A program made the position numbers and the translations under genes. The notes under the pieces were generated by a model. That model ran no database searches, was not told where the DNA came from, and saw only the letters and a program-made list of their open reading frames with translations. Positions 1,603-35,867 of a DNA stretch of 64,000 nt are shown piece after piece. Origin of the DNA: an uncultured Armatimonadetes bacterium (GTDB lineage: Bacteria > Armatimonadota > Hebobacteria > Hebobacterales > Hebobacteraceae). Location of the stretch: positions 288,001 through 352,000 of the forward strand of contig OY970296.1 of NCBI GenBank assembly GCA_963716175.1, written 5' to 3'. The first letter of the stretch is position 1, and each line of letters opens with the position of its first letter.

Positions 1603-3021
1603 CTAGTGTCGCCCGCGCTGGTCAGAGCTGGGAAGGCGCAGCGCGAGCCGGTACTTGGCGACAGTTCGCCTAGCCACCTGGAAGCCCCGCACTTGCAGGA
1701 TGCGACAGATTTGCTGATCCGTCAGCGGCCGCTCCGGGTCCTCCCGGGAAAGCAACTCGGCCACCACGGTCTTGGGCCCTGCAGCAACCAAGAAGAATGC
1801 TCCGAATGACATGAGCTTCCCGCTAGGCAGAAGCACGAACTTGTCGGAGATGGCACGCGACACGGTGGACGGGTGCTTGCCGATCTGCTCCGCGACCTGG
1901 CTTCGCGTGAGGGCTTTCATCTTGCCCTCCGCCTCGGTGTCCAGGAACGGGCGCTGAAACGCGGCCACGTTCTCAGCTATCTGCCGTAGCGTCTGCTCGC
2001 GCAGGGACAGGCACTGGAGCAGCCAGGTGGCGCGGCGGCACTGCTCGAGTGCCAGCTCGTGCTCCGGCGAACCGCTACCGTTTTTCCACGCGAGGCCCTC
2101 CAGCCGCCGATAGGCCTCGCTCACCCGGAGCTCGAAGTCGCAGGGCTGCACCACCTCGACCACATAGTCCGCCAGGTCACGCCGGAAGATCACGTCCGGC
2201 CGCACCACGCTGAGTGGGTTGCTGCGGGGATGGTCATGGCGAGGGTGATACAGCCGGCCTGGATAGGGATGGAGGTTATCCCGGATGAACGCAACGGCCT
2301 CGTCCACGCGTTCCACCGAAGCTCCGAGCGCGCGCGCGGTCTTCTCGTAGGCGTGGTTCGCGAGGTCTCGCCAATGGTGAGACAGTATCGGTTCGACGAG
2401 ATCCGGCACTGGTGACGCAGACGCAAGTTCCCGCACCTGGATCAGCACTGACTCCTGGACCGAGCGAGCGCAGATACCTGGCGGGTCAAGGGACTGCAAC
2501 TGGGAGATGACTGCAGCAACGCGGGCCGTAGTCACCCCCAGCGCTTCGGCCGCTTCCTCCAGACTGCCCTCCAGCAGCCCGTCATCGGTAAGGGTTGCAG
2601 TCAGGTACTGGGCAATGGCGAGGTCGGAGGGCGGAAGCGCTACGCGGGCCTGAAGCCAAACGTACTGCCGCAGGCTGAGCGGGCTGCCGACGTTATCGAG
2701 CGGATCGTAATCATCATCCTCGTGGCTGCCGCGAGACAGCAGTGGGGGAAGTGGGGCATCCTCGTAGTCGCTTGCCCGGGGCGCCTCTCCTCCGGCCCCT
2801 TGCCTACAGAACAAGCAGACACCGTTGGACAGGCCGCGCCCGCAGATCTCGCACACTGAGTCCCAGACTACTTCCAGAGCCGGATTCAGCGTGACCTCTT
2901 CCTCGATCCGGAGCTGGAGTTGCTCGGACGACATCTCGAGTATGGCTCCGGCCGCCAGCAGCCTGGGGCTGATCCGCTGAGTCTGAACGTTTCGAGAATG
3001 CAGTCTCTGGGCAACGCGCAT
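1603..3021 (-). CDS. rpoN: RNA polymerase sigma-54 factor
   Basis: Region I (ILEMSSEQL..RIEEE...NPALE), LQSLDPPGICARS core-binding motif, HPSTVSRA HTH and the RpoN box ARRTVAKYR. Confidence 0.97.
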   Translation of the reverse strand: MRVAQRLHSRNVQTQRISPRLLAAGAILEMSSEQLQLRIEEEVTLNPALEVVWDSVCEICGRGLSNGVCLFCRQGAGGEAPRASDYEDAPLPPLLSRGSHEDDDYDPLDNVGSPLSLRQYVWLQARVALPPSDLAIAQYLTATLTDDGLLEGSLEEAAEALGVTTARVAAVISQLQSLDPPGICARSVQESVLIQVRELASASPVPDLVEPILSHHWRDLANHAYEKTARALGASVERVDEAVAFIRDNLHPYPGRLYHPRHDHPRSNPLSVVRPDVIFRRDLADYVVEVVQPCDFELRVSEAYRRLEGLAWKNGSGSPEHELALEQCRRATWLLQCLSLREQTLRQIAENVAAFQRPFLDTEAEGKMKALTRSQVAEQIGKHPSTVSRAISDKFVLLPSGKLMSFGAFFLVAAGPKTVVAELLSREDPERPLTDQQICRILQVRGFQVARRTVAKYRLALRLPSSDQRGRH

Positions 3022-3029
3022 GATTGGTC

Positions 3030-3854
3030 TCAGAGGCGGTCAGCGGTCTCGCCGCGGGTCTCGTAGCTATCAGCTCCCGCGTCAGATCCTCTCCGTCCGA
3101 CACGCCCGGGGTCTTCAGTCTTGGATTGGACCTGTGCCAGGAGCGCGCGCAGGTACCGACGCGCCTCTGGCGCCAATCGCAGGAAACGGAAACCATAGCA
3201 GTGCCAGAGCGGCCCTCGCTCCCCGACCGGCTGATACCAGACTGGCTGAGCCATGAGGCGGCCCTCCCGGGCGCCACCCTCGGTCGGAACAGACAGGACA
3301 ACAGGGCCCTCGAGCGTCAGACGAGCGCGGAAGGAGGCCCTGAGCCCCCGCTGAGCGATGTCGTCGGTATGCCCGGATATGGCCACGGCAGGAGGATCTA
3401 CGCTACCGGCGGGCCAGGCTCGAATCGGCAGAACAGCGGCGAAGCGCGGCTGCCTGCGCCGCTGCAAGTACTCGACGCGCCGGGGACCAGCCACCATGAT
3501 CTCAATCACGCAGTCCCGGATGGAGAGGCCCGTCACGCGGGAGTGAAACTGGCCCCAGCCGCGAGGCGAGGCGAATCCCACCTCTACCGCAGTATGCAGC
3601 GAGATCGAGTCCGGGTACCAGTCCCGTGCCCAGGCCCATACCAGCAGAGACTCCGAGCTTTGGTCCAGAACTGTTGCCGAGTAGGCGCCGGCACCAGGGC
3701 CGGTCCGGACACGGATTCTCACGCGCTCCCCCCGTTTCAGCCCAACTGGGGACTGGCTTGCGCTCTTCCGGTCCATGCCGGGAAGCGCTGGCTGACGCGG
3801 GGAACTGCTCGACTCTGAAGAAGAAGACCACCCGCTCGACGGACGCTCTGTCAT
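3030..3854 (-). CDS. PilZ-domain (YcgR-like) c-di-GMP receptor
   Basis: RxxxR motif (QRRRQPRF) followed by a D-x-S-x-x-G-like motif (DIAQRG) and C-terminal YGFRF. The ORF-track start at 3992 overlaps a sigma54 promoter, so ATG 3854 or 3776 is more likely. Confidence 0.75.
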   Translation of the reverse strand: MTERPSSGWSSSSESSSSPRQPALPGMDRKSASQSPVGLKRGERVRIRVRTGPGAGAYSATVLDQSSESLLVWAWARDWYPDSISLHTAVEVGFASPRGWGQFHSRVTGLSIRDCVIEIMVAGPRRVEYLQRRRQPRFAAVLPIRAWPAGSVDPPAVAISGHTDDIAQRGLRASFRARLTLEGPVVLSVPTEGGAREGRLMAQPVWYQPVGERGPLWHCYGFRFLRLAPEARRYLRALLAQVQSKTEDPGRVGRRGSDAGADSYETRGETADRL

Positions 3855-3968
3855 TGGCGCGAGCTCCAGGCAGACAAAGCACAGCGGCCTCGGCCTGCAG
3901 TCCCCTCTGTGCATTGTCGGACCGGCTGTGACGCGATCGGATGGTCTGCCAATCCACTGGGCCCGAAA

Positions 3969-3984
3969 CGCAACATCCGTGCCA
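3969..3984 (-). promoter_or_regulatory. Sigma54 -24/-12 promoter for PilZ-rpoN
   Basis: The minus strand reads TGGCACGGATGTTGCG (GG-N10-GC, matching TGGCACG-N4-TTGC). It lies just past the activator stop codon at 4002. Confidence 0.8.
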
Positions 3985-4001
3985 CAAGCCATAGGTGGGT
4001 T

Positions 4002-5447
4002 TCATGGCTTTCGCGCTCGGGAGGTTGTGCCGCGGCGCCACAGATCCCATCTATCGGCGTGATAGCGGACCCACCTGGGTGAGACGCCGAGTAGCTGCGC
4101 CGCCAAAGTGGCATTGCCATTGGTCTTCATCAGCGCCTCGCCCAGGGCGGCCCTCTGCAGCTGTTCGCCTCCCCGGCGAAGGAAAACCGAAGGACCCCAC
4201 GCCGTCACTGGCTGGAACCTGAGCTCAGGTGATCCCAGCCGGACCGCGTCTGGCAGCAGAGAGGGGTCGATCTCTGTTGCTTCGGGTTCGGCCAGCACCA
4301 CCGCCCGCTCGACGTAGTTCTCCAACTCACGGGCGTTGCCCGGCCAAGGGTAGCGCCGCAGCAGTTCGAGCGCCTCCGGAGATACCCTCGCGATCCGCTT
4401 CCCGTTCGCCCGGGCGTAGATTTGGACGAAGTGCGTTGCGAGTGGCTCAATATCCTCGGGACGCTGCCGCAAAGGCAGCAGGCCAATCTCGACCACTTTC
4501 AAGCGGTAGTACAGGTCCTCGCGAAAGGTGCGTTCCCGGACCGCAGTCGCAAGATCACGGTTGGTGGCGGCGATGATCCTGACATCAACGGTCAGGGTAT
4601 CCGTGCCCCCGACACGTTCGAACTGACGCTCCTGGAGAACCCGCAGCAGCTTCACCTGCAGGTCTACGGGCATTTCGGCGATCTCGTCCAAGAACAGCGT
4701 GCCGCCATCGGCGAGCTCGAAACGTCCAGGCTTCTGCCGGTCTGCCCCGGTAAAGGCCCCCTTCTCGTGCCCGAACAGCTCACTCTCCAGCAAGTCCCGG
4801 GAGAGGGCGCCGCACGAGACTGCGACAAATGGGCCTGACCGGCCCTTCATGCTGTGGATGGCACGGGCAAACAGCTCTTTCCCCGTGCCGCTTTCCCCTG
4901 TGAGGAGCACCGTGGCCCGACTCGGTGCCACCCGCCGGACCAGGTCCAGGGCCTGCTGAAGCCAGGGACCCTGGCCCACTATGCCCAGACCATACGCGCC
5001 CGGCGCGGCCGGCTGGCGCCCACGACTAGCGGCCGGCTGGCGCCCACGACTAGCTGGGGAAATGGGGGTTTGGGTGGAAGACGAGCCGAGCGCTTCCGCC
5101 ACAGTCGCCCGCACCGCATCCAAGTCCAGCGGCTTCTGGAAGTAGTGAAACGCTCCCTGCCTGAGGGCTTTCACCGCGGTCTCGATGGTTCCGTACGACG
5201 AAACCAGGATCACGGGGAGAGTCGGCCGCACTTGGTGGGCCGCGTCCAGCAGTTCAAATCCGTTAAGCGAGGGGATGACCAGCTCGGAGATCAGCAGGTC
5301 AACGTTCTCCTCCGTGATGACCTGGCACGCTTCCTCGCCGTCCCTCGCCGCCCGCACGTAGTGCCCGTCCTTCTCCAGCGCCGCGCCCAGTCTCCGGCTG
5401 GAGTCGGCCTCGTCGTCCGCAACCAGAATGTAGGAGCGTGTGCTCAT
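4002..5447 (-). CDS. Sigma54-dependent enhancer-binding activator (REC-AAA+-Fis HTH; NtrC/AtoC family) with atypical receiver
   Basis: Walker A GESGTGKE, GAFTGA loop, LFLDEI, WPGNAREL and C-terminal HTH GNATLAAQLLGVS. The receiver has Glu55 where the phospho-Asp is expected. Confidence 0.95.
   Translation of the reverse strand: MSTRSYILVADDEADSSRRLGAALEKDGHYVRAARDGEEACQVITEENVDLLISELVIPSLNGFELLDAAHQVRPTLPVILVSSYGTIETAVKALRQGAFHYFQKPLDLDAVRATVAEALGSSSTQTPISPASRGRQPAASRGRQPAAPGAYGLGIVGQGPWLQQALDLVRRVAPSRATVLLTGESGTGKELFARAIHSMKGRSGPFVAVSCGALSRDLLESELFGHEKGAFTGADRQKPGRFELADGGTLFLDEIAEMPVDLQVKLLRVLQERQFERVGGTDTLTVDVRIIAATNRDLATAVRERTFREDLYYRLKVVEIGLLPLRQRPEDIEPLATHFVQIYARANGKRIARVSPEALELLRRYPWPGNARELENYVERAVVLAEPEATEIDPSLLPDAVRLGSPELRFQPVTAWGPSVFLRRGGEQLQRAALGEALMKTNGNATLAAQLLGVSPRWVRYHADRWDLWRRGTTSRARKP
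5005..5054. repeat. Perfect 24-bp tandem duplication in the activator linker
   Basis: GCGGCCGGCTGGCGCCCACGACTA x2, encoding ASRGRQPA twice between the REC and AAA+ domains. Confidence 0.95.
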
Positions 5448-5920: not shown

Positions 5921-5936
5921 TGGCACTCAGGTTGCC
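5921..5936 (+). promoter_or_regulatory. Sigma54 promoter (distal) upstream of wza
   Basis: TGGCACTCAGGTTGCC, GG-N10-GC, intergenic. Confidence 0.65.
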
Positions 5937-6086: not shown

Positions 6087-7334
6087 ATGGCCACGAAGTC
6101 TGAGCCGCTTTGGGCTCTGGTCGTCGTCTGTGCGATCTGGGCGGTCGTGTCCTGGCCTGCGGCAGCTTTGGGCCAGGATGGTGCAGGGGAGGTAACCCCG
6201 CAGGAGGCCACCCCGGAACACGGTCCGGTCACAGCGCCAGCTACAGTCGCGTCGGAGTACACGATCCAGCCTGGAGACACCCTTCAAGTGACGGTGCTCG
6301 GCATGCCGGATTGCTCGGGCTCGTTTCTGGTGCGTCCAGAAGGCACCATCTTGGTGCAGAACGAGATGCTCGGTTCGGTGGCCGTGGCCGGCTCTACGGT
6401 TGCCGACGCCGGCAAGCTGCTGACCAGCCGCATCGGCGAGTACGTCAAAGACCCCACGGTGATCCTGTCCATAGCTCGTTTCCGGGTAACGGTAGTGGGC
6501 CTGGTGCGCGAGCCTGGGCAGTACGAAGTCGCGTCGGGCGCCCGTCTGTCCGAGGTGGTGGAGAAAGCGGGTGGGGCCACAGACGAGAGCCGGGACCTGA
6601 ACCGGGTTTACGTCACGAAGGCCTCCGGCAGCGAACTGCAGTTCGATCTCAGGGCGTTCAAGCAGCAGGGCGACCAGAGCCAGAACCCGCTGCTGGAGCC
6701 CGGTGACCGCGTCTCGGTAGGCAAACCCGTTACTGGCAGGTCTGAGGAGTTCCGGGTTACAGGTGCAGTGACCAAGCCAGGTGCGTACCCCTTGGGCGGC
6801 GGCGTCACGCGCATCTCAGACGCGGTTTCCAGCGCGGGGCGATGGACGGCGGATGCCAACCCCAGGGCGGCCCGGCTGATCCGGAAAGATGGCACCACAG
6901 TCGTGGTCGACATTACCCAACTGGACAGCCACTCGGGCAGCGAGCAAGACCTGGAACTCCGGGACGGGGACGAACTGCTCGTCCCGCGGAACACCGCCAT
7001 GGTGAACGTGCTTGGCGGAGTGAGAAAGCCGGGCCAGTACTACGTGGCCCCCGGGACTAGCCTGCTGGAGGTGATAACCACGGCTGGAGGACTGGAGGAG
7101 GGGGCAATCTTGAGCCAGTGCGCGGTGATCCGTGGCCAACCCCAGGCCAAGAGAATCCCCGTAGACCTCGAACGGCTGATGAAACAGGGGGACATGTCCC
7201 AGAACCCTCAGGTTCAGGACCGGGACGTGGTCTTTGTACCGGTGCGTGCGCCAGCGCGGGCGGGCACCAGGGGCACGTTTGATGCCATCGCCGACAACAT
7301 ATGGCGCTACCTCTGGGTATTTGGCGTCTTCTAG
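6087..7334 (+). CDS. wza: Polysaccharide export protein (Poly_export plus three SLBB domains)
   Basis: Signal peptide, YTIQPGDTLQVTV Poly_export motif and repeated V.G.V..PG.Y/AGG/NP.L..GD SLBB units. Start moved to ATG 6087 (GAGGTG SD, downstream of the promoters). Confidence 0.85.
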   Translation: MATKSEPLWALVVVCAIWAVVSWPAAALGQDGAGEVTPQEATPEHGPVTAPATVASEYTIQPGDTLQVTVLGMPDCSGSFLVRPEGTILVQNEMLGSVAVAGSTVADAGKLLTSRIGEYVKDPTVILSIARFRVTVVGLVREPGQYEVASGARLSEVVEKAGGATDESRDLNRVYVTKASGSELQFDLRAFKQQGDQSQNPLLEPGDRVSVGKPVTGRSEEFRVTGAVTKPGAYPLGGGVTRISDAVSSAGRWTADANPRAARLIRKDGTTVVVDITQLDSHSGSEQDLELRDGDELLVPRNTAMVNVLGGVRKPGQYYVAPGTSLLEVITTAGGLEEGAILSQCAVIRGQPQAKRIPVDLERLMKQGDMSQNPQVQDRDVVFVPVRAPARAGTRGTFDAIADNIWRYLWVFGVF

Positions 7335-7368: not shown

Positions 7369-7884
7369 ATGACTGCCCGCGAATTCTGGCGTATCTATCG
7401 GGAGATCTGCCGCAGGCGTTGGCTCGGCCTCTCCATTTTCGGTGCGAGCTTCGGCACAGTGCTCCTTGGCTGCATCGTCATGCCCCGGTACTACCGGGCC
7501 TCCGCCTACGTCATGCCCTCGGAAGTGGCCCTCAGCAGGCCCCTCATTCCGGGAGCTGCATCGGTCTCTGGTCAGGCCCCTGAGCGAGCCATTGATGCTC
7601 GCACCAGAGAGGAGCAGATGGCAACCTTGATGGGTCTCGCCGAAACCTCGGAGGTGCGGCAGAGGGCCATCAAGTCGCTAGGCCTGAACGCGACACCAGA
7701 GGAGTTGGCGAGGGCAGTCAACGTCGAACCCGGATCCGGGAGCATCATCAAAATCGAGCGCGGTGTCACGTACGCCGGCCGAGGCAGTGTCGCTGGCCAA
7801 CACCATCGCCCATCAGTTTGCGGCATACTACGAGGATCTCCGGAGCGTTCAGGCCAGGCTGAACCGCGAGTTCCTTCAGGGTGA
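7369..7884 (+). CDS. wzc: Wzc/GumC chain-length regulator, N-terminal fragment (frameshift near 7759)
   Basis: Wzz-like N-terminal TM and P.YYRASA motif. Removing one C at 7759 joins it to the next frame (IKIE-AVSRTPAEAVSLAN). Confidence 0.75.
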   Translation: MTAREFWRIYREICRRRWLGLSIFGASFGTVLLGCIVMPRYYRASAYVMPSEVALSRPLIPGAASVSGQAPERAIDARTREEQMATLMGLAETSEVRQRAIKSLGLNATPEELARAVNVEPGSGSIIKIERGVTYAGRGSVAGQHHRPSVCGILRGSPERSGQAEPRVPSG

Positions 7885-8728
7885 GGTGGCGCAGGCTGAG
7901 GCTGAGAGGCAGCGCGCGAAGTCCAATCTGCAGGCGTTCAAGGGCCGCGCGGGCGAAGCCGCTCTGCCGCCGGGCTCGGATAGGAATCCGTTTCTCTCGC
8001 AATTCTACGCGCTCCGCGCTCAGATTGATGACACCCGATCGCGTCTGGAGTCGGTCGAGGGCCGCCTTCGGGTCGCTCGTGGTGAGTTGGACAGGCAGTC
8101 GCCGACTCGGCAGACCGAGACCAGCACCAGCGATAATCTGGTAACCCAGCAGCTTCAGGACGAGCTCGCGAGGCTGGAGAAGGAGCTGGTCTCCGCCCAG
8201 AGCCGGTATACAGAGAAGCATCCGAAAGTCCGAGATCTGAAGGCCCAGATCGCCGGCATCCGGGGGCGGCTGTCGCGCCAAGACGACAGGATGGTCAGCA
8301 ACCGGACCATCCAGGCCAACCCCGTCTACGAGAAGCTTGGCAATGAGATCGTGGACCTGAGCGGCGAGCGAGCAGCCCTGGCCTCCCAGCTCGGGGCGCT
8401 GACGAAGGCGATGGCGGCCAACGAGGAGCGGGCAGGACGCCTGGCCGATAGCTCGGTGCTGCTGACCGCTAAGACCCGCGAATACGATGATGCCCAGGAC
8501 AGATATCGCGCGTCTGAAGACGATCCTGGACCAGGCCAGGGTGGACGAGAAGGCGAGCGCGAAGGCCGCGCTGATCCAGGTTGTGGACGAAGCGAAATGG
8601 GCCACCGGCGCGGTGATGCAGAGAGGCCCTTCACCGGCCCAACTCCTGCTGGCCGGACTGGCGCTCAGCATCTGCCTAGCGTTGGGCACTATCCTTGGCC
8701 TGGCGTTCGTCGACGACAGGATCCATAG
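7763..8728 (+). CDS. wzc: Wzc periplasmic coiled-coil fragment (second frameshift near 8507)
   Basis: Coiled coil with the SRYTEKHPKV motif typical of GumC/Wzc. Removing one C at 8507 gives DRY-ARLKTILDQA. Confidence 0.75.
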   Translation: MSRTPAEAVSLANTIAHQFAAYYEDLRSVQARLNREFLQGEVAQAEAERQRAKSNLQAFKGRAGEAALPPGSDRNPFLSQFYALRAQIDDTRSRLESVEGRLRVARGELDRQSPTRQTETSTSDNLVTQQLQDELARLEKELVSAQSRYTEKHPKVRDLKAQIAGIRGRLSRQDDRMVSNRTIQANPVYEKLGNEIVDLSGERAALASQLGALTKAMAANEERAGRLADSSVLLTAKTREYDDAQDRYRASEDDPGPGQGGREGEREGRADPGCGRSEMGHRRGDAERPFTGPTPAGRTGAQHLPSVGHYPWPGVRRRQDP

Positions 8729-12501: not shown

Positions 12502-12519
12502 CGCGATAGGGGTGCAGTC

Positions 12520-15689: not shown

Positions 15690-15713
15690 CGCCTCTGGCC
15701 TAGGTGGCAAGCT

Positions 15714-19190: not shown

Positions 19191-19259
19191 CCCTGTCCTC
19201 CTCTCCCGCACTACTTCCCTACTCTATACCCAATATTCCACATCTTCATCTGTCGTGGC

Positions 19260-19275: not shown

Positions 19276-19459
19276 TGCCGCGCGCGAGGATGAAGCTCGC
19301 GCTCTGGGCCGCAGCATGCCATCTGAGGGCCCATTCTACAGCTCAGGTTGACCCATTGCCCAGACAGGGAGACCTTCACCATGCTTGTCCGTTTCCCTCT
19401 GTTCGAGCTGCCTGCCCTTAGCATCCAACAGAAGCCTGTGTGGCCTGGATAGACCAAAG

Positions 19460-21556: not shown

Positions 21557-21571
21557 GACTGAGGTTCGACC

Positions 21572-23015: not shown

Positions 23016-23028
23016 GGGAGGCCGGTCG

Positions 23029-24216: not shown

Positions 24217-24245
24217 TGTAGCGCGCGAGCAGAGGTCATTCATTG

Positions 24246-27105: not shown

Positions 27106-28874
27106 GCGCGCATGCACCCGACAACCCGCCCCCGGGCCGGCCCACCTTCTCGCTCGTTGTGCCAATGCGCAACGAGCAGGGCTACGTTGAGGAGACCCTG
27201 CGCTCGCTCTTGGCCCAGCAGTATCCTCGGGACGCTGTCGAGATCTTGGTCGTGGACGGCTGCTCGGACGATTCCAGCCGCGCTGTCGTGGCCCGCATGG
27301 CGCATGAGCATGCGAATCTCTGCCTGCTCACTAACCCGGGGCGCTTGCCGGCTGCTGGCCGCAATGTCGGCATCCGAGCCGCCCGCGGCCGGTTCATCGG
27401 CATCGTGGACTGCCACTCCTTCGTGCGGCCTGACTTTCTCGCCACGGCCGAGCGGTTGTTTGAGGAGACCGGCGCGCACTGCCTAGGCCGGCCCGTGGAG
27501 CTGTTCATTCGGACTGATTCCTATCTCCAGCGCGTTATCGGGGCGGCGCGGACATCATGGTTGGGCCACAACCTGGTCTCGCCCCGCTACAGCTTGGCCC
27601 GCGGTGCTATCAGCCCGCTCAGCGTTGGCATCCTCTACTGCAAGGAGGTGTTCGATCGAGTCGGCCTCTTCAACGAGGAGTTCGGCGCCTGCGAGGATGT
27701 CGAGTTCAACTTCCGCCTGAGCCAGGCGGGTGTGAGCACATGGACCGACCCGGCGCTGCAGGTCTACTATCACCCCCGCGGGTCGCTGGGGGCGCTGTTC
27801 AGGCAGATGAGGCGCTACGGGTACTGGCGCTACCGGCTGCTGCGGGGGCAGCAGAGGGCTTTCCACATGTCACAGGCAGCCCCCGCGGCCGCCCTGGCGC
27901 TGGCGGCGTTGACCATGCTTCCTGCCGCCTTGGGGGTACTGCCGCCAGCAGTGCCGGGAGCCCTGGTCGCGGGCTATGCTGCCCTAGTGGCTCTGGCCTC
28001 GGTGCGCGCGAGTCTGGCCCGAGGGCTGAGATACCTGCCGCTGCTCCCGCTGGCCTACGCTACCATTCATCTTGGCGCCGCGGTTGGCTTCTGGTCGGGT
28101 GTCTTCTCGGAAATGGGTCACAGCATCAGGCAGGTCCTGGTGAGGGCGGCGCGCTGGCGCGGCAGCGCTGGTGGACCATCGTGGGAGGAGACGTATGCCT
28201 CGCAGCGGCGCGCCAACAGCGGCTTCCTGGCGAGAGGCCTGAGGATGCGAACGGCCGCGGCAATCCAAGCGCTGAGCCTGTGCGTCTCTCCTCGCCAGCA
28301 GTTCTCGCTCCTCGATGTAGGAAGCGCGGGCGGTGAAATGCTGCCATCTCTGCGACAGGCATTCCCAGGGATCATCCCTATCGGCCTCGACCGTTCCCGC
28401 GATCTCCTGACCTCAAGAGTGGCGCCTGACCTGGCGGTCCAAGCCGATGCCATCATGTTACCTTTCAGAACCCACTCCTTCGATGCCTGCCTGCTGGCGT
28501 CCGTCCTCAAGCATGTCAGCAGGGCGGATCAGGCTCTGGCTGAGATCGCGCGAGTGGTGAGGCCGGGTGGCGCGGTGGTGATCATAGACCCGAGCGCCCT
28601 GGCCATCAGAGTCGGGTGTCTGACGGGCTATCTGCACCGTTCCTCGATCGCCCACCGGTTCACTCTCCGCGACCTGCGCCGGATGCTCGCCGGCGCTGAC
28701 CTGGAGACCGTCGCCACGCGTTTCCTGGTTGTGCACACGCGGTGGCCATGGCTCGACTCAGCACTGAACCGAGCGGTCAAGGCGCTGGGGCTCTTTCTGT
28801 TCATCCCGACCTGGGTCGTCCTAGTGTGTAGGCCAAGAGCGGGCGCTCTGGAGGGCCGCCTGGCAGAGCGCTGA
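27102..28874 (+). CDS. Fused GT2 (ExoA-like) glycosyltransferase + class I SAM methyltransferase
   Basis: VPMRNE, VDGCSDD, VDCH, EDVEFN, QMRRYG. Then LLDVGSAGG, ADAIMLPF..SFD, EIARVVRPGG. Confidence 0.82.
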   Translation: MSAHAPDNPPPGRPTFSLVVPMRNEQGYVEETLRSLLAQQYPRDAVEILVVDGCSDDSSRAVVARMAHEHANLCLLTNPGRLPAAGRNVGIRAARGRFIGIVDCHSFVRPDFLATAERLFEETGAHCLGRPVELFIRTDSYLQRVIGAARTSWLGHNLVSPRYSLARGAISPLSVGILYCKEVFDRVGLFNEEFGACEDVEFNFRLSQAGVSTWTDPALQVYYHPRGSLGALFRQMRRYGYWRYRLLRGQQRAFHMSQAAPAAALALAALTMLPAALGVLPPAVPGALVAGYAALVALASVRASLARGLRYLPLLPLAYATIHLGAAVGFWSGVFSEMGHSIRQVLVRAARWRGSAGGPSWEETYASQRRANSGFLARGLRMRTAAAIQALSLCVSPRQQFSLLDVGSAGGEMLPSLRQAFPGIIPIGLDRSRDLLTSRVAPDLAVQADAIMLPFRTHSFDACLLASVLKHVSRADQALAEIARVVRPGGAVVIIDPSALAIRVGCLTGYLHRSSIAHRFTLRDLRRMLAGADLETVATRFLVVHTRWPWLDSALNRAVKALGLFLFIPTWVVLVCRPRAGALEGRLAER

Positions 28875-28918: not shown

Positions 28919-28928
28919 TAGGTCCAAG

Positions 28929-31187
28929 ATGCGCCCGCCGGGGGGCTTTGTCCACGGAGGGCCTGGGGTGCTGGGGTCAGAGCGTGGCGCGCATCATCCG
29001 ATTCGAGAGCAGCAGACAGTGCGAGCGCAGGACCAGACGGCGCAGCCGACAGCCACCGTTCCGGCCGCTCCCAAGGCTGAGCCGAATCAGCCGCTAGGAG
29101 CCCTCTGGGAGGATATCAGGTCGCTCGGGAAGCAGTCGCTGATCTACGGCGCCGGGCTGTGGGCGACGAGCGCCGCGGGGTTCGTGCTAGTCCCACTCTA
29201 CGTCCGCCGTCTCTCGCCTCACGACTACGGCCTGCTCGAGATCCTGAACCGGACCTCAAGCATCCTTTCCACCTTTGCTCTCGCCGGGATGGTGCTGGCA
29301 GTCCTCCGGTTCTACTACCTCTACGATCGGCCAGAAGAGCGGCGCCGCGTGATCAGCAGCGCCCTGGCGTTTTCCTTCCTTACTTCGTGCTTGATCCAGA
29401 GCGCCATCGTGGTGTTCTCCCACGATCTCAGCCGCCTGCTGCTGGGCTCGCCTGACTACGCCGCGCTGTGCGTGCTTGCCGGCTTCATCACGATTGCGGA
29501 CATGCTCTCTCTTCTCCCTGGCACGCTGCTGCGAGTCCGGGAGCAAGTGCTGCTGTACACCGTTTTCTCGGTCGCCAAGTTCGCTCTCGCCATCACGCTC
29601 AACATCTGGTTTGTCGTCGGGCTGGGCCGCGGGCTACCCGGAGTCATGGAGGCCAACTTGGCAGCCAGCGCCGCGGTCGGGCTGGCGGTTGCGGTCTACT
29701 GCCTGCGCGCGGTCGGGCTCCGAGTATCAGGCACGATGCTGAGAGCCATGCTGGCTTTCGGCCTGCCGGTTGCTGCGGCAGGGATCCCAGGCATTATCAC
29801 CGAGAACCTCGATCGCTACCTGCTGCTCCATATGAGATCAGCCGCGGAGGTCGGCATCTACGCCCTGTCGGTCAGATTCGGGACGCTGCTATCCCTCCTT
29901 TTGTTTCAGCCCTTCGGCTTCATCTACTCGCAGTTCATGTTCAAGGTGGCAGATCGCCCGGACGCCAGCCGGATCTACGGCAAGGTGACTACCGTGGTCA
30001 CGGCGCTCGGGGTGTGGCTGACGGTGGCGCTTGCGACCTTCGCTCCCGACATCGTCTCCCTGGTCTCGCCGGGTAAGGCCTACGCCCTGTCCGGCGTGGT
30101 CGCTCCCGTCCTTCTCATAGGCTATCTCTTCTATGGGGTAAGCCCTCTGCTCGAGGTGGGGATCTACCTGCAAAGGAAGACTCTCTGGAAGCCAGCAATA
30201 GTTGCCGTCCAGGCGGTGGCATGCACCGTTCTCTTGTGGCAGTTCGTCCCCCGCTGGGGCGCAACCGGAGCAGCATGGGCACTGGTCGGCTCCGAGGCCG
30301 TTCTCTGCCTCTGCCTTTACCTGGTGGCACGGCGGCTGTTCCGGATCTCCTACGAATGGCCTCGCCTGGCCGCGCTGCTCGCGGTGCTGGTGGCAGCCAT
30401 TGCGCTTGGCGCCAGGCTCGCCGGATCTCCCTCCCACCTTGGTTTCGTGAGCAGGCTGGGCTTGGTCGCTGGAGTGGCCCTCCTGGTGGGAGCCACTGCC
30501 GTGTTGAGACCCAGGGCAGGGATAGGTACGGCGCGCCTGTCCTCCTTTGCCTCGTGCCTGCCTAACCTGATCCCTAGCGGCGCCCGGCGTGCCGCCCGAC
30601 TTGCCGCAGAGCCGTTGATACGAGGCGCCTGGCATCTGGACCCAGGGGTGCTGATAGTACGATATCACTCCATTTCGGATCCGTCGGACCCCGGCAACCC
30701 CATCTCGCCTGGCATCTGCACCAGCCCTGCAGATTTCTATGAGCAGATGGCACTGCTCGCGGCCCAGGCGACGCCAGTCTCTCTTGACACGGTGCTCGAC
30801 GCGTTCGACCGAGGAGTCAGGCTGCCTGCGCGTCCCGTGGTGGTGACCTTCGATGACGGTTACGCGGACAACTGCGAGATCGCTCTGCCGATTCTTCGGG
30901 ACCGTGGAATCCCCGCGGCTTTCTTGATCACGACCGGATGGACAGGTACGGATATCGAGCCCTGGTTCATCGCTATCAGGTCAGCTTTCTCGGCAACCCG
31001 CCGGCGGTCGTGGGCACCAGCGCCCTCAGACCGCGAGTACCCGCTTGACTGCGAAGACGGTCGGCGCGCCGCGCGGCGCGCCGCCGCACGCATCCTCGCG
31101 CGGCTAAGTCTCGCCGAGCAGGAAACGTGGCTGGGACAGCTTCGCCGCGAACTGGAGATCGACGCGCCGGCCAGGGGGCCCCCCTGA
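28929..31187 (+). CDS. wzx: Wzx flippase fused to the N-terminal part of a polysaccharide deacetylase
   Basis: KQSLIYG, PLYVRRLSP.DYG, DRYLL, EVGIYALS and 12-14 TMs. Then YHSI, VVVTFDDGYADN, PAAFLITTG. Start is 28929 or 29019. Confidence 0.8.
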   Translation: MRPPGGFVHGGPGVLGSERGAHHPIREQQTVRAQDQTAQPTATVPAAPKAEPNQPLGALWEDIRSLGKQSLIYGAGLWATSAAGFVLVPLYVRRLSPHDYGLLEILNRTSSILSTFALAGMVLAVLRFYYLYDRPEERRRVISSALAFSFLTSCLIQSAIVVFSHDLSRLLLGSPDYAALCVLAGFITIADMLSLLPGTLLRVREQVLLYTVFSVAKFALAITLNIWFVVGLGRGLPGVMEANLAASAAVGLAVAVYCLRAVGLRVSGTMLRAMLAFGLPVAAAGIPGIITENLDRYLLLHMRSAAEVGIYALSVRFGTLLSLLLFQPFGFIYSQFMFKVADRPDASRIYGKVTTVVTALGVWLTVALATFAPDIVSLVSPGKAYALSGVVAPVLLIGYLFYGVSPLLEVGIYLQRKTLWKPAIVAVQAVACTVLLWQFVPRWGATGAAWALVGSEAVLCLCLYLVARRLFRISYEWPRLAALLAVLVAAIALGARLAGSPSHLGFVSRLGLVAGVALLVGATAVLRPRAGIGTARLSSFASCLPNLIPSGARRAARLAAEPLIRGAWHLDPGVLIVRYHSISDPSDPGNPISPGICTSPADFYEQMALLAAQATPVSLDTVLDAFDRGVRLPARPVVVTFDDGYADNCEIALPILRDRGIPAAFLITTGWTGTDIEPWFIAIRSAFSATRRRSWAPAPSDREYPLDCEDGRRAARRAAARILARLSLAEQETWLGQLRRELEIDAPARGPP

Positions 31188-31573: not shown

Positions 31574-31611
31574 AGACTGAAGAAGCCTACCGGGCCAGGA
31601 GGATGAAGGCT

Positions 31612-31626
31612 TGGCACCTAGTTCGC
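31612..31626 (+). promoter_or_regulatory. Probable sigma54 promoter upstream of GNAT-radical SAM gene
   Basis: TGGCACCTAGTTCGC (GG-N10-GC; TCGC instead of TTGC), intergenic, about 30 nt before ATG 31659. Confidence 0.55.
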
Positions 31627-31658
31627 CCGCGCCCACCGTGGGGGCAGGGCCATCGTCA

Positions 31659-34019
31659 ATGACAGCGCAGATCGAGCTGGTGCGCAGCTCGGACGGCCTG
31701 GCCTCGCTCCAGCCGGAGTGGGACGAACTCGCGTCGCGTAGCCCCGCCTATCCGTTCACGAGCCACGTCTGGCAGGGGACCTGGTGGCAGGCGTTCGGCA
31801 GGCCACCCCGGAGCCTTTACACTCTGGTGCTGAGGCGAGGTGGCCGGGTCCTTGGCATATTCCCGCTCATGCTGACCAGAGGCCGCCTGCGGGGGATTCC
31901 CCTGCGCATGCTGACATTTGCTCAGAGCGCCCAGGCACCCCGTGCCGATGTTCTCCTGCGGGAAGACGACCCCCAGGTGCTGACGGAGCTACTCGAGTAC
32001 CTCAGCGCCGCGCCCGGCTGGGATTGCCTGGTGCTGCGGAAGATCCCCGCCAGCTCCCCCTCTCTGACCATGCTTCAGTCCAGCCTTCGGGATCAGGGCT
32101 ACTGCTACCACCTCCATCAGAGCCTTCGTTGCCCCTATGTGCGCATAGACGGGGACTGGGAGGGTTTCCTGCAGTCCCGATCCGTGAAATTCCGCAAGAG
32201 CTGTCGCAACAAGCTGAACCGCGTCCAGCGCAGCCATCGCATGGAGGTAGAGCACATCTGCGACTGGGCTCGCTTCACGTCGGTCTATGATGAGATCTGT
32301 GAAGTCTCGTCCCGCAGCCGGCTGGTCGCTCGCCAGGCCGCCCTGGCGAGTCGGCCTGAGCGGGTTGGGTTCTACCGCCGCCTCGCCCAGCAAGCGGCCT
32401 CTCGCGGCTGGCTCAGCGTCTGGACTCTGCGCTTCGACGGTCGCATGGTTGCCTACGAGTACCACCTCGCCGTCAATGGAGTGAACCACGGGCTGCTGGC
32501 CGCATTCGACGACGACTTCGAGGCGCTGTCTCCAGGTTCTGTGCTCGACTATCACGTAGTGCGACAGCTTTTCCTCGATGGGCGCGCGGGATACGATCAA
32601 GGCGGCTGGGAGGCTTTCTACAAACGAAGATGGACAGACCAGGCCCTGGAGCATGTGGACCTGATCGCGTTCCCACGGCGCTGCCGGGCGGCGTTGGCCA
32701 ACCGGTGGGAGTACGGCATCGTGACCTGGCTGAGGGAGCGTCGCAACCAGCTGAGGCCCTCCTCGGGGTCGGATCATGCAGCTCGGTGGCTGGCCATCCG
32801 GGAGAGCATATCCTGGGAGCCCTCTGAGGCCCCTCACCTGGAGCACGAGGATGAAGAAGGCGCGTGGGGCCCTGATCTGAACCCGTTCCACCTGGCCCGG
32901 GATGGATGGCAGATGCTGCGCCGCGATCTGGCGCGGGACCTGAACTACTACCGTGTGCGGCCGACGAACCTGCTTCCCTTCCTGACTTACCGCTGCAGCT
33001 CGAGATGTCGCACCTGCAGCATGTGGCAGCGGCGGAGCGTGCTCCCAGAGCTCAGCCTCGCTCAGTGGCAGACGTTCCTCACCTCCCTTGCAGAGATACA
33101 GCCCAGATCACTGCGCCATGTAGAGTTCTTCGGGGGCGACGTGCTTCTGAGGCCCGATGTCTTGATGCCCCTGATCGAGCAGGCATCCGCCATCGGCCTG
33201 GACACCGCCGTCCCCCTCAATGGCATCCTTCTGGACGAGCGCATGGCCGCCCAGCTTGTGGCCAGTGGGGTCCATACCGTCTACCTCAGCGTGGATGGAG
33301 TGGGCGAAGTGCATGACCGCGTCCGCGGCGTGCCTGGCAACTTCGCGCTTCTTAGGCGCGGCCTGGCAGCATTGCGCGCGGCCCGCGGAGATCGCCGTTC
33401 CCCAGAGATCGTCGCCATCTGCACCGTCTCGCGCCTCAACGCGGACAGCTTCGAGCAGGTGCTTCCCTTCGCGGCCGAAGCGGGATGCGACAGACTTCAC
33501 TTTGAGTACGCGGGAGAATTCCCGGCCGAGGCCTGTGCGCGCTCGGTGCTCGACGGGCACCGGCCGGCCCCCTACTTCTCGAGTTCCAACGGCTCGGTGC
33601 TGGTGGAGGCGGCACAGGCCTATCGCATCAAGCGCGAGCTCTCGCTGATCCGGTCATCTCCTGCTCCCGGCAAGCTGTATGTCGCCACCACCAACATAGA
33701 CGTGCTTACTACGGAGCAGATGGTGCTGGGCCGCTTCGACGTACGCCAGTGCTATGTGGCCCGACTGATCGTCACCGTTGACCCCTTCGGGGGCGTGCTG
33801 GCCTGCCCGTTCTTCGACACCTACCTCCTGGGCAACATCCTCGAGCGACCACTCTCCGAGATCTGGAACGGACCGACGCACCGGCGGTTCCTGCAGGCAC
33901 AGCGGCGGGGGGAATTCCCCATCTGCCGCCACTGCATCATGAGCGTGGAGCGGAATCCCACCTTCGGGCAGAGAGTCGTGAAGCGATACCTGGCATGGCG
34001 GAAACTGGCGCGCAGTTGA
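31659..34019 (+). CDS. Fused CelD/BcsL-type GNAT acyltransferase + radical SAM/SPASM protein
   Basis: N-half: EWDEL..PF.SH.W..WW, LSPGSVL, YKRRWT. C-half: CSSRCRTC (CxxxCxxC), GGDVLLR, SVDG..HDRVRG and SPASM C..ACPF..LGNI..IWNG..CRHC. Confidence 0.85.
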   Translation: MTAQIELVRSSDGLASLQPEWDELASRSPAYPFTSHVWQGTWWQAFGRPPRSLYTLVLRRGGRVLGIFPLMLTRGRLRGIPLRMLTFAQSAQAPRADVLLREDDPQVLTELLEYLSAAPGWDCLVLRKIPASSPSLTMLQSSLRDQGYCYHLHQSLRCPYVRIDGDWEGFLQSRSVKFRKSCRNKLNRVQRSHRMEVEHICDWARFTSVYDEICEVSSRSRLVARQAALASRPERVGFYRRLAQQAASRGWLSVWTLRFDGRMVAYEYHLAVNGVNHGLLAAFDDDFEALSPGSVLDYHVVRQLFLDGRAGYDQGGWEAFYKRRWTDQALEHVDLIAFPRRCRAALANRWEYGIVTWLRERRNQLRPSSGSDHAARWLAIRESISWEPSEAPHLEHEDEEGAWGPDLNPFHLARDGWQMLRRDLARDLNYYRVRPTNLLPFLTYRCSSRCRTCSMWQRRSVLPELSLAQWQTFLTSLAEIQPRSLRHVEFFGGDVLLRPDVLMPLIEQASAIGLDTAVPLNGILLDERMAAQLVASGVHTVYLSVDGVGEVHDRVRGVPGNFALLRRGLAALRAARGDRRSPEIVAICTVSRLNADSFEQVLPFAAEAGCDRLHFEYAGEFPAEACARSVLDGHRPAPYFSSSNGSVLVEAAQAYRIKRELSLIRSSPAPGKLYVATTNIDVLTTEQMVLGRFDVRQCYVARLIVTVDPFGGVLACPFFDTYLLGNILERPLSEIWNGPTHRRFLQAQRRGEFPICRHCIMSVERNPTFGQRVVKRYLAWRKLARS

Positions 34020-34690
34020 GCGGCCGGCCCCCGATCACGCGAATCAGGCGGGTGTGGCAGGAGGGAGGTCTGCCCGCTATCTACGGGTGCATTGCCGAAC
34101 GGGTGCTGCGGCACAATTCGGCAATTTGGCACGAGCGCCAGCTGGTCGGCGAGCTGCCCGCAGCGAAGGCGAAGCTGCCCGTGAGCATCATCCGCGACGA
34201 CCTTCGAGGGACGCTGGAATGGCTGTACCGCAGACCGCACGATCCGCGTGAACTTGGTCTGGCTCTTGCTGAGGGCCATCTGTCTCCCCGCGCCGAACTC
34301 AACGGCGCCTTGGTCGCCTATGTCAAGGCTGGCTGGGGTGCGGTCTGGGTCTCGGACTACCAGGGCTTTGTCAGTTTCCCACCCGAGGCCGCCTTCATCT
34401 ACGATACCTATGTAGAGCCAGCTCTCCGGCGCCAGGGAATCGGAAAAGCGATGGTCGCGGCCGTCATGAAGGAGCTGCAAGCGCGTGGGTTCGCGCGCGT
34501 GTTCTGCCACATCCCAGAATGGAATCGCGCCTCGCGCCATCTCTACGAGTCCGTCGGGTTCGTAGCACGAAGGAAGATCGTGTTCGCGCGGATTCTCGGG
34601 CTGCCTATCCTGTGGCCCCATCCGCGGATGCTGTGGCGGCACCCGCCTTCGTCTACGGAGCATCCGACATCAGGTCACAGCCGATCATGA
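33995..34690 (+). CDS. GNAT family N-acetyltransferase
   Basis: IYDTYVEPALRRQGIG acetyl-CoA motif and N.ASRHLYESVGF. Confidence 0.85.
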   Translation: MAETGAQLSGRPPITRIRRVWQEGGLPAIYGCIAERVLRHNSAIWHERQLVGELPAAKAKLPVSIIRDDLRGTLEWLYRRPHDPRELGLALAEGHLSPRAELNGALVAYVKAGWGAVWVSDYQGFVSFPPEAAFIYDTYVEPALRRQGIGKAMVAAVMKELQARGFARVFCHIPEWNRASRHLYESVGFVARRKIVFARILGLPILWPHPRMLWRHPPSSTEHPTSGHSRS

Positions 34691-34742
34691 GCGACAGGGT
34701 CCAGCAGAAGGCAGATGCGAGCCATTACAGGATTGCAGTGCC

Positions 34743-35867
34743 GTGACATACCGGCTCCTCGACTGGCTGGCTTGCCCTAGGAACTCCTGCTTCCCCCTCA
34801 AGATCACCGCCGCGATCGAGAGGCAGCTTCCCGCCTGTTCAGCCGGGAGAAGCCCCATCCGATGCGATGCCTACTGCGGCCGGCGACAAGCGCCAGTGGA
34901 TGATATCCCCGCGGAAGAATGCCTGGCCTGCGCAACTGTAGAGGTGGTGGAGGGTGAGATTCGGTGCGAGTGCTGCGGCGCGATCTCCACCTTGACTGAC
35001 GGCATCCCGGACATGCTGCCTCCAGAGCTGGCCGCGGCAGCTAGACTGGGAGCAGCCGCATCTGCGCCGCGCGGCCTCAGGGACAAGGCCAGCGAGATGG
35101 CGGCAAGAGACCAGCAGGCGGCAAGCTACAATAGCAGGCGCAACCCATTCGATAGGGAAGCCGAACTGGGAGTGCTCCTGAGGTCACTCGATGTCCGGCC
35201 CAGAGACCGGATCCTCGACGGCGGGGCGGGAACCGGGTTTGTCACCCTTGCCTGCGTAGCGCGAAATGTAGAGCTGGCAGCGGTAGACTTCTCCCGGGAA
35301 TCGCTGAAGATGCTGCGGAGCGCCATCCCGTTGCCGCTACTCTCTCAGACCCATCTCGTGCAAGCGGACCTCACTAGGCTGCCCTTTCGCGACGGTATCT
35401 TCGACAAGGCGGTGCAGGCCCAGGTGCTGGAGCATCTGCCCACAGCAGAAGACCGAGATGCCGCCGTGTCTGAGACCAAGCGGGTGCTTACGCGGGGCGG
35501 CCGGTTCGTGCTCTCCGCCTACAACTTCTCCCTATGGAAGAAGCGGTCGGCCGCCAGGGGCGAAGTGCACTTCGCTCAGCGAGAAGGTTACCATGGCGGG
35601 CGGATCTACTACCGGAACTTCGAAGCCGCGGAGCTCCGCGCTCTGCTGTCGCAGCACTTCCAGGTCAGGAGCATCCGCGGTGTCATCAATGAGCTCCCGG
35701 AGGATCTTCAATACCGGCTGAGACCATTCGGGCTCTTGGTGGAAAGGGGATTGCAGATGACGGCGCTGTCTGTCCACCTGGGCCGTCTGCTCGTTGCCAG
35801 CTGTCGTCGCGAGGGCCAGCCGCCCACCCCAAATCAGGGCTCAAGCAGTCCTCGGCCGGCAGCGTGA
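34743..35867 (+). CDS. Class I SAM methyltransferase with N-terminal Trm112-like zinc domain
   Basis: LLDWLACP...EGEIRC..C...DGIPDML; ILDGGAGTG, VDFS, ADLTRLPF, VLEHLP. Confidence 0.85.
   Translation: MTYRLLDWLACPRNSCFPLKITAAIERQLPACSAGRSPIRCDAYCGRRQAPVDDIPAEECLACATVEVVEGEIRCECCGAISTLTDGIPDMLPPELAAAARLGAAASAPRGLRDKASEMAARDQQAASYNSRRNPFDREAELGVLLRSLDVRPRDRILDGGAGTGFVTLACVARNVELAAVDFSRESLKMLRSAIPLPLLSQTHLVQADLTRLPFRDGIFDKAVQAQVLEHLPTAEDRDAAVSETKRVLTRGGRFVLSAYNFSLWKKRSAARGEVHFAQREGYHGGRIYYRNFEAAELRALLSQHFQVRSIRGVINELPEDLQYRLRPFGLLVERGLQMTALSVHLGRLLVASCRREGQPPTPNQGSSSPRPAA

Follow-up and report, generated by a model that had tools for sequence, protein, structure and literature searches.

A probable PEP-CTERM/exosortase exopolysaccharide locus housing its organism's whole sigma-54 system

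The window analysed here is a 64,000-nucleotide (nt) stretch of DNA, bases 288001–352000 of one 4.56-Mb contig (OY970296.1) from an uncultured Armatimonadota bacterium; window base 1 is genome base 288001, and the genome is referred to below as G000. Positions 1603–35867 of this window are probably the larger part of a PEP-CTERM/exosortase exopolysaccharide (EPS) locus that houses the whole sigma-54 system of the organism. In its full extent the locus spans genome 285136–323867 (window −2864 to 35867, ~38.7 kb) and carries seven or eight predicted −24/−12 sites. This reading is built on the observed genes, the observed sites and their enrichment, their conservation among relatives and the single-copy counts of the regulators. 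Taken as a whole, the locus appears to be a compact version of a sigma-54 control scheme already known from Proteobacteria.

Sigma-54-like sites and the extent of the locus

An earlier note on the window, made from its letters alone, had described six −24/−12-type motifs ahead of an EPS cluster and a PilZ-rpoN pair, together with a sigma-54 activator. Profile scans with Pfam and NCBIfam, the source of all gene identities given here, recover rpoN, a PilZ-domain gene, an activator with an intact GAFTGA motif and the EPS cluster, and all six motifs lie where the note had placed them, five as exact TGGCAC-N5-TTGC matches and the sixth, at 31612, with one mismatch. All six lie in gaps, each ahead of a gene on its own strand, and together they head each plus-strand sub-operon as well as the PilZ-rpoN pair (Table 1). 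The sites combine GG and GC spaced by 10, an intergenic placement, an orientation towards a gene and an activator encoded in the genome, which are the sequence features by which −24/−12 promoters are predicted. The site at 31612 is a weak candidate, argued for mainly by its position in the 423-nt gap before the FemAB-like/radical-SAM gene. The statement that no intergenic motif follows after 36 kb is also borne out, the sole TGGCAC-N6-TGC match beyond that point (56636, minus strand) being antisense within a gene. A sigma-70 and terminator scan of positions 1400–6200 returned 0 promoter-like sites, and two terminator-like sites against 2.4 expected.

Enrichment of the exact pattern is evident at two scales. 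Within the window, TGGCAC-N5-TTGC occurs five times, against a mean of 0.18 and a maximum of two in dinucleotide shuffles, none of 100 of which reached five; the excess is about 28-fold over expectation. The one-mismatch pattern gives 29 matches against 27 expected, which is the chance level, and therefore only the strict form carries weight. Across the genome the strict form occurs 14 times, and five of these sites fall within 1603–35867, a stretch that makes up 0.75% of the genome (binomial P = 4.5e-8), so that the genome-wide enrichment at which the earlier note had aimed is found. As controls, the reversed pattern has five sites genome-wide, and spacers of 2–4 and 6–9 give 2–11. A weight matrix was trained only on 13 sites beside rpoN in four related genomes, which avoids circularity; applied to the whole of G000, it returns 16 hits of at least 15 bits, six of them in the locus (ranks 1, 2, 4, 5, 7 and 15). 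The other ten all lie inside genes of a codon-usage gene map. As a separate observation, one identical 21-nt weak matrix hit recurs at genome 1734007, 2001745, 2808928, 1067338 and 1070849, each copy 106 nt from a gene start and antisense to the gene; this five-fold hit is probably the signature of a repeated element, for instance an insertion sequence.

The locus extends beyond the left edge of the window. The earlier note had seen no exosortase or PEP-CTERM gene and had set the cluster in contrast to PEP-CTERM systems, but this absence is an effect of the window edge, since both genes lie 0.25–2.9 kb left of window base 1. The genome has one exosortase match (PF09721, 230.6 bits, at 286230–286982; TIGR02602 172 against a cut-off of 105.55), one DUF3485 match fused to it (122.8 bits; TIGR02914 85 against 42.8) and one PEP-CTERM match (PF07589, 27.9 bits against a cut-off of 20.7, at 285148–285225), with the order VPEPTS, hydrophobic stretch, RRRH. 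Subtype models for the exosortase remain below their cut-offs (TIGR03109 for XrtA, 198.2 against 208; XrtD, 275.1 against 400; XrtW, 244.9 against 425), suggesting a subtype near XrtA/XrtD/XrtW. Between the diverging PEP-CTERM and exosortase genes, two outward-facing sites, TGGCATGTTTCTTGC and TGGCCCGATTCTTGC, lie 86 bp apart (window −2002 to −1887). Because the exosortase and PEP-CTERM genes stand just left of the window, each behind a sigma-54-like site, the locus itself reads as a version of the PEP-CTERM/exosortase system. The earlier note had pointed to SLH-anchored proteins alongside instead; the SLH genes at 37–42 kb lack a sigma-54 site, and no result connects them with the cluster.

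The arrangement is conserved among relatives. In a class sample of 31 genomes (G000 and 30 relatives), rpoN occurs in four of the 30 relatives, namely G003 (two copies), G015, G018 and G020, whose RpoNs are 42–61% identical to that of G000. Exosortase hits of 128–220 bits occur in exactly these four relatives; another five relatives lack rpoN and have an exosortase of a different, low-scoring kind. Strong activators number one per rpoN copy, with one more on a 2251-bp contig of G010 whose surroundings are unassembled. The XrtA-system deacetylase model TIGR03006 exceeds its cut-off only in G000, G003, G018 and G020 of the 31, the G015 contig ending before that point. All four rpoN relatives keep the activator-PilZ-rpoN order and the sigma-54 site between activator and PilZ, so that the linkage and promoter positions whose conservation the earlier note had proposed to check are retained. 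The Wza-Wzc-deacetylase-transferase block lies alongside in G003 and G020, and the G015 contig carries Wza, Wzc and dehydrogenase and then ends. On the same stretch G015 has exosortase, EpsI, kinase and PMT-like genes and a PEP-CTERM gene whose product is homologous to that of G000 (E = 2e-19); four of these genes are headed by sites. The exosortase gene has a site in front of it in each of the five genomes, and the exosortase-then-PMT order is common to G003, G020, G018 and G015. The exosortase gene lies megabases from rpoN in G020 and on another contig in G018. Two details of the relatives may be added: G020 also has two tandem sites before wza, and G015 has the same back-to-back site pair (contig stretch L014, 11966 minus and 12007 plus).

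Regulators and the predicted matrix switch

Each regulator of the system is present once. A PF04552 search finds a single rpoN copy in the 4.56-Mb genome, PF07238 a single PilZ match (as against eight GGDEF matches) and PF00158 a single strong activator match (239.7 bits; 236.5 in the scan of the window), the three others, at 23–33 bits, being generic AAA+ proteins. As rpoN is the sole copy of the genome, the locus carries no extra sigma factor; the idea of a switch carrying its own sigma factor thus stands insofar as rpoN lies in the locus, and falls insofar as it meant an additional copy. The paralog count and tree give one copy in G000, with the RpoNs of the class in one clade (support 100). 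A sole rpoN whose linkage to the EPS cluster is not conserved had been named as a finding that would count against the idea; rpoN is indeed the only copy, but its linkage is conserved, and the promoter positions are as well.

The activator keeps its catalytic motifs, EKGAFTGA, GESGTGKE (Walker A) and LFLDEI (Walker B) being invariant in alignment A2. Its receiver differs from those of relatives in one column, which reads DLLITD in G020 and G018, DLLISE in G000 and DLLIAS in G003. Read from the fold, this column at the end of strand 3 of the receiver would be the phospho-acceptor, with aspartate replaced by glutamate in G000 and by serine in G003. Glutamate at the phospho-acceptor position is a classical activating substitution in NtrC-type proteins. 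In G020 and G018 (GAF-PAS) and in G015 (PAS-type), the gene immediately before the activator encodes a histidine kinase, and G000 and G003 have no kinase gene there; the best NCBIfam hits of the G020 kinase are AtoS and ZraS, not PrsK. In addition, the PilZ protein has a REC + PilZNR + PilZ architecture in G020 and G018, and its G000 counterpart has no receiver domain in alignment A3 and in translation. With the kinase gone, glutamate at the acceptor and the PilZ receiver lost, the phosphorylation input of the activator has probably been lost in G000.

The PilZ gene sits between activator and rpoN. Its listed open reading frame (ORF) is over-extended, the predicted promoter overlapping its first codons, and translation probably begins at one of two ATGs, 3854 or 3776. 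The consensus for cyclic di-GMP (c-di-GMP) binding by PilZ domains consists of RxxxR and (D/N)xSxxG. The G000 protein keeps the first motif as RRRQPR and has alanine for serine in the second, DIAQRG (G015 reads NLSNSG); c-di-GMP binding is therefore likely but unproven. The site of the PilZ-rpoN pair starts 17 nt past the activator stop codon, ahead of the PilZ gene, which leaves no room for a terminator, so that read-through from the activator gene could give basal sigma-54.

From this arrangement we infer promoter activity, feedback, a loss of phosphorylation control and the ligand of PilZ. The activator, bound near the locus, would open sigma-54 holoenzyme with ATP at the seven or eight −24/−12 promoters. 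These predicted promoters would drive the PEP-CTERM cargo gene, the exosortase-EpsI-PMT operon, the wza-wzc export/priming operon, the glycosyltransferase/Wzy operon, wzx and the PilZ-rpoN pair, and probably the decoration operon as well. As rpoN stands behind its own promoter, read-through would supply basal sigma-54 that activation would amplify, and such self-amplification would make a positive-feedback, all-or-none matrix switch. With the phosphorylation input probably lost, c-di-GMP acting through PilZ would be the most likely remaining signal.

Where PilZ would act is a separate matter. PilZ modules on or beside polysaccharide synthases, as for cellulose and alginate, are a classical output of c-di-GMP. 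With that precedent, it is quite possible, though not the outcome we expect, that PilZ acts post-translationally on the polymerising or export machinery and is merely co-expressed with rpoN, having no part in transcription; no result of the present analysis shows contact with sigma-54 or the activator. The position of the gene speaks for transcription instead, as it lies between activator and rpoN in all five main loci and not among the synthesis genes, and in G020 and G018 the receiver of the PilZ protein and the kinase-activator pair before it suggest a signalling branch. Moreover, the receiver protein from the rpoN2-vemR-fleQ operon of Xanthomonas is reported, in the available part of PMC6637908, to bind RpoN2. 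A bolder extension is doubtful: that PilZ binds sigma-54 or the activator directly and c-di-GMP gates a self-promoted sigma factor, giving a bistable, kinase-free matrix switch in a co-inherited, self-sufficient "regulon cassette", with lineages of the class keeping or losing sigma-54 along with the locus.

RpoN of G000 also shows a feature of its own. Residues 56–71 (window 2809–2856) form a zinc-ribbon-like CxxC-X8-CxxC insertion that separates region I from the core-binding domain, and C57, C60, C69 and C72 are invariant in RpoN alignment A1. A CxxC-X8-10-CxxC insertion is present in 31 of 69 RpoNs, all 31 in the clade of the window's phylum and named Chloroflexota, and in 0 of the 28 RpoNs of the proteobacterial-type clade. 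A literature search found no description of this RpoN insertion. In Helicobacter pylori a separate zinc-ribbon protein, FlgZ, reportedly stabilises RpoN.

Weighing the reading, origin and gene content

Several results weigh against a dedicated locus circuit. With the relatives' matrix, two of the six window sites (5921 and 31612) stay under 12.2 bits, and the exosortase site reads TGGCCC, not TGGCAC. The codon-usage gene map on which the non-locus hits were placed is crude, having missed the PilZ gene and the broken wzc. Neither 8-mer counts over the 245 nt upstream of eight promoters nor an alignment of five orthologous exosortase promoters revealed a convincing shared enhancer motif. The PEP-CTERM leader would run ~330 nt from its site, compared with the 221-nt maximum in the available part of Haft et al. 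2006 (PMC1569441); an Rfam scan of the window plus 20 kb to the left gave 0 matches and thus recognised no riboswitch in this leader. With D-x-A-x-x-G in the PilZ protein, c-di-GMP binding by it is not assured. At least half of the sampled words from this region are found in nine DNA runs (habitat sediment/wetland), and no RNA run is listed as carrying the DNA of window 1500–8000. Outside the locus, three or four sites (1502185, 2860942, 3233238 and 3879541) lie in or near gene starts and may be genuine. Finally, G020 has 17 exact sites (control, six), ten of which are outside its two loci; confinement of the regulon to the locus is therefore not a rule for the whole group.

The genes behind those sites of G000 and behind a further one at 2466076 share no common theme, comprising HD-CE-like and ParA-like genes, a small HTH gene, an unknown gene next to DUF2961, LarA with ferredoxin, and an unknown gene. 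The outside sites of G020 precede genes for DUF1573 Ig-like, LVIVD-repeat, PD40 propeller, CarboxypepD_reg and phosphodiesterase/sulfatase-like proteins, and also for signal peptidase II, a LuxR-type response regulator and a solute-binding protein. Lying mostly before secreted or surface-protein genes, they suggest a wider cell-surface regulon in that genome.

Such sites would fit an ordinary, general-purpose sigma factor whose wider regulon escapes the patterns used and whose position at the locus is a habit of the lineage. The commonness of rpoN in the phylum sample (213 of 301 genomes) fits this too, as does the tree of 69 RpoNs, which places the six class copies together (support 100), beside the main phylum group as its sister (support 94), and so shows them not to be of an imported type; the spacer-5 excess in G000 (14 against 2–11) leaves room for about three sites outside the locus. 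This account is nevertheless unlikely. Sigma-54 promoters need an activator, of which G000 has one strong match only; all ten non-locus matrix hits of at least 15 bits fall inside called genes; and over the 31 genomes rpoN, activator, high-scoring exosortase and TIGR03006 are present or missing together.

Alternatively, the locus with its sigma-54 module could be a horizontally moving cassette, in which all parts needed for expression travel together, and this would explain the patchy distribution (five of 31 class genomes; one of 14 in the window's own family). Among 12 further rpoN loci of the same phylum, one, in G243, a genome of a distant family that has several rpoN copies of its own, shows activator-rpoN beside XrtA-type deacetylase, Wza and kinase genes; that EPS-linked copy, however, falls outside the class clade, within which the same-family pairs G000 with G003 and G020 with G018 group together. 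The composition of the locus is that of its genome (GC 65.05% against 66.2 ± 1.1% in same-size windows; tetranucleotide distance at the 71st percentile), Pfam scans of the flanking genes show no integrase, and the Rfam scan of the window and left flank shows no tRNA. Horizontal movement is thus quite unlikely, and inheritance with repeated loss of the whole system is favoured over recent transfer, in what is a small sample, because the class RpoNs form one clade and the locus has the genome's own composition.

That the motifs are chance matches or sites of another factor is scarcely credible, for although the one-mismatch pattern lies at expectation, the exact pattern exceeds it about 28-fold, every site is intergenic and correctly oriented, the same gene junctions carry sites in four other genomes with RpoN identities of 42–61%, and the sites top a genome-wide scan with an independently trained matrix.

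The wider search places the locus as follows. As a control, relatives of its exosortase, Wza, Wzc and PilZ proteins occur within 10 kb at 0 of 80 rpoN loci of other phyla, where an activator is found at nine. A single-protein scan of named genomes gave no match, and a profile scan returned RpoNs of at most 35% identity only. An Atlas look-up with RpoN led to Chloroflexota clusters, and named Chloroflexota share a well-supported clade with the window's phylum in the RpoN tree. Two observations concern additional rpoN copies: contig C202 of G003 (L016, 1–2386) bears a second activator-rpoN pair with no PilZ gene between, and an adjacent activator is present at eight of 14 further loci fetched, which are second rpoN copies of the phylum.

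Table 1. Predicted promoter sites and genes of the locus. Positions are window coordinates unless given as genome coordinates; site ranks are those of the relatives' weight matrix.
Feature	Position	Strand or direction	Remarks
TGGCATGTTTCTTGC	within genome 285998-286113	towards PEP-CTERM gene	20.2 bits, rank 5
TGGCCCGATTCTTGC	within genome 285998-286113	towards exosortase gene	rank 2
TGGCACGGATGTTGC	3970-3984	(-)	exact TGGCAC-N5-TTGC; predicted promoter of PilZ-rpoN pair; rank 15
TGGCACTCAGGTTGC	5921-5935	(+)	exact match; upstream, weaker site, 152 nt before wza ATG 6087
TGGCACGATCTTTGC	6022-6036	(+)	exact match; predicted main wza-operon promoter, 51 nt before ATG 6087; rank 4
TGGCACGGTTATTGC	19260-19274	(+)	exact match; predicted glycosyltransferase/Wzy promoter, ~110 nt before GT4-GT2 gene; rank 7
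TGGCACGGTTCTTGC	28903-28917	(+)	exact match; predicted wzx promoter, 29 nt past preceding stop; rank 1, 28.3 bits
TGGCACCTAGTTCGC	31612-31626	(+)	one mismatch, -12 element TTCGC; weak; before FemAB-like/radical-SAM operon
PEP-CTERM gene	genome 285136-285771	diverges from exosortase gene	up to 2.9 kb left of window
Fused exosortase-EpsI gene	genome 286134-287753	same strand as PMT-like gene	0.25-1.9 kb left of window
PMT/ArnT-like membrane glycosyltransferase	2..1543	(+)	Pfam PMT_2; last gene of exosortase-EpsI operon
rpoN	1603..3021	(-)	Sigma54_AID, CBD and DBD domains
PilZ-domain gene (PilZN-like + PilZ)	3030..3992	(-)	PilZ E 3.6e-10
Sigma-54 activator (receiver + AAA+ + HTH_8)	4002..5447	(-)	PF00158, AAA_lid_14, HTH_8
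Wza-type polysaccharide export protein	6087..7334	(+)	Poly_export + SLBB; TIGR03027 135.6, below cut-off 180
Wzc-like chain-length determinant + tyrosine autokinase, RodZ_C-like tail	7369..10277	(+)	three frames in window
NDP-sugar dehydrogenase	10278..11552	(+)	separate gene; TIGR03026 443.9, above cut-off; separate ORF in G015
XrtA-system deacetylase, priming sugar transferase, epimerase, GT4, PaaK-like CoA ligase	11566..17069	(+)	rest of wza operon
Beta-helix/DUF11 protein	17211..19211	(-)	sole gene inside cluster without a preceding sigma-54 site
GT4-GT2 fusion, Wzy-like polymerase/ligase, GT2, GT4, no-family protein, GT2-methyltransferase	19385..28874	(+)	
Wzx-type flippase-polysaccharide deacetylase fusion	28929..31187	(+)	Polysacc_synt + Polysacc_deac_1; in-frame ATG 28929
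FemAB-like acyltransferase-radical SAM/SPASM fusion, GNAT, methyltransferase	31611..35867	(+)	Pfam/NCBIfam

The polysaccharide genes score unevenly on the models for XrtA-type loci. The deacetylase exceeds its XrtA-system cut-off (TIGR03006, 318.1 against 276.2), and TIGR03025 scores 368.6 against 295.55. Hits to the XrtA-locus models for the export protein, the chain-length determinant and the kinase, and to TIGR03013, TIGR03088 and TIGR03097, stay below their cut-offs; in the glycosyltransferase/Wzy operon all hits to TIGR03097, TIGR03088 and EpsU do likewise. This operon also contains a 566-amino-acid (aa) ORF (25405–27105) that scores well as coding sequence and matches no Pfam or NCBIfam family.

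The broken state of wzc is an artefact. Compared with metagenome contigs, the window has extra single bases at 7756, 8507 and 10130, and these are absent from metagenome runs (four of four at 7756, four of four at 8507 and all three covering runs at 10130). In G003 (940 aa) and G015 (714 aa), wzc is a single ORF. The frame breaks and the kinase-dehydrogenase fusion are therefore single-base insertions of the assembly, not biology, and like errors elsewhere may explain the 90.85% completeness of this one-contig genome.

The enzymes encoded at 31611..35867 probably decorate the polymer. FemAB-like and radical SAM/SPASM domains share one ORF (31611–34019), and a PaaK/F390-synthetase-like CoA ligase is encoded at 15714–17069; both hint at an unusual acyl or peptide decoration. 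Further right, 37446–41982 and 53013–61567 hold genes for two proteins that combine SLH with PKD repeats and for three of the DUF1559 type whose N-termini carry methylation (pilin-like) motifs. All of these genes are without a sigma-54 site and appear not to belong to the circuit. The DUF1559 genes would agree with the placement in Armatimonadota that the earlier note considered probable.

Comparison with known sigma-54 systems

Sigma-54 control of PEP-CTERM genes and a sigma-54 link to exopolysaccharide genes are both established. According to the available portions of the sources, a sigma-54 motif precedes PEP-CTERM genes in Proteobacteria, where PrsK, PrsR and PrsT are the regulators (Haft et al. 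2006, PMC1569441), and the start site of pepA in Aquincola has been mapped at a −24/−12 promoter and depends on RpoN1, the EPS genes of the organism being reported as independent of RpoN1 (PMC9850573). The link to exopolysaccharide genes in general is described by Francke (2011, PMC3162934). Predicted sigma-54 promoters before rpoN are reported for several classes in the available part of PMC12316311, in which the words exosortase, exopolysaccharide, Chloroflexota and Armatimonadota have 0 occurrences each.

Against this background, the apparent novelty of the G000 locus lies in a non-PrsR activator whose kinase has been lost, and in predicted promoters that stand before rpoN as well as before the operons for synthesis, export and sorting. 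Additionally, the only rpoN, activator and PilZ genes of the genome all lie inside the locus, and genomes of the class either have the system as a whole or lack it. Most work on sigma-54 treats it as a multi-purpose factor with many activators; G000 offers a natural minimal case, in which a single sigma-54, a single activator and a single PilZ protein go with a single locus of seven or eight predicted promoters. If the promoters work as read, sigma-54 control of an exosortase system extends past the proteobacterial PrsK/PrsR scheme to the operons for polysaccharide synthesis and export and to the enzyme that does the sorting; sigma-54 can be retained by a lineage solely for a matrix locus; and the joint loss of kinase, receiver aspartate and PilZ receiver gives a concrete picture of how a circuit is rewired. 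Its small size would also make the locus a convenient test bed for the coupling of c-di-GMP to sigma-54.

The closest counterpart is the PrsK-PrsR-PrsT system. Both combine EpsI and an exosortase with PEP-CTERM cargo, in both the XrtA-system deacetylase belongs to a large Wza/Wzc/glycosyltransferase locus, both have an NtrC-type receiver-AAA+-HTH activator and a predicted −24/−12 promoter before the PEP-CTERM gene, and the sediment/wetland habitat of G000 is a further likeness. The regulators themselves differ: the G000 activator scores 359.2 on the PrsR model TIGR02915 against a cut-off of 502.6, with the AtoC and NtrC models scoring higher, and the best genome scores for PrsK and PrsT are 101.7 (cut-off 300) and 106.6 (cut-off 312.2), from generic kinase and TPR parts only. 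Unlike PrsK/PrsR, the activator is without an adjacent kinase and its receiver aspartate is replaced. Rather than heading cargo genes alone, the G000 sites also head the biosynthesis and export operons and the exosortase; there is a single PEP-CTERM gene; and rpoN and the PilZ gene lie within the locus, rpoN behind a predicted locus promoter.

Systems with one sigma-54 and one activator are represented by Rrp2-RpoN-RpoS in Borrelia, CtcC-sigma-54 in Chlamydia and ManR-sigma-54 in Lactobacillus plantarum, each with a narrow regulon directed at a second sigma factor, at developmental genes or at a sugar transporter. G000 shares with them the pairing of a single activator with a single sigma-54; its target, unlike theirs, is a locus for matrix and protein sorting within which the regulator genes themselves lie.

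In c-di-GMP signalling, sigma-54-type activators that bind c-di-GMP and act on polysaccharide genes include FleQ, BerB (with RpoN in Burkholderia), VpsR and Nla24. As in those systems, the predicted G000 circuit would join c-di-GMP, a sigma-54-type activator and matrix genes; the activator is the c-di-GMP-binding protein in those systems, whereas the candidate receptor in G000 is a separate PilZ protein.

The gene order itself has a parallel in the rpoN2-vemR-fleQ operon of Xanthomonas, where a small signalling protein is co-transcribed with the sigma-54 and activator genes and where VemR is reported to bind RpoN2 (available parts of PMC6637908 and PMC12271599). G000 likewise has a small signalling-protein gene between activator and rpoN. 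VemR, however, is a bare receiver serving flagellar genes, and the middle gene of G000 encodes a PilZN-PilZ protein, a receiver being present only in more distant relatives; the output in G000 would be polysaccharide and exosortase, and its rpoN is the sole copy of the genome rather than a paralogue such as RpoN2.

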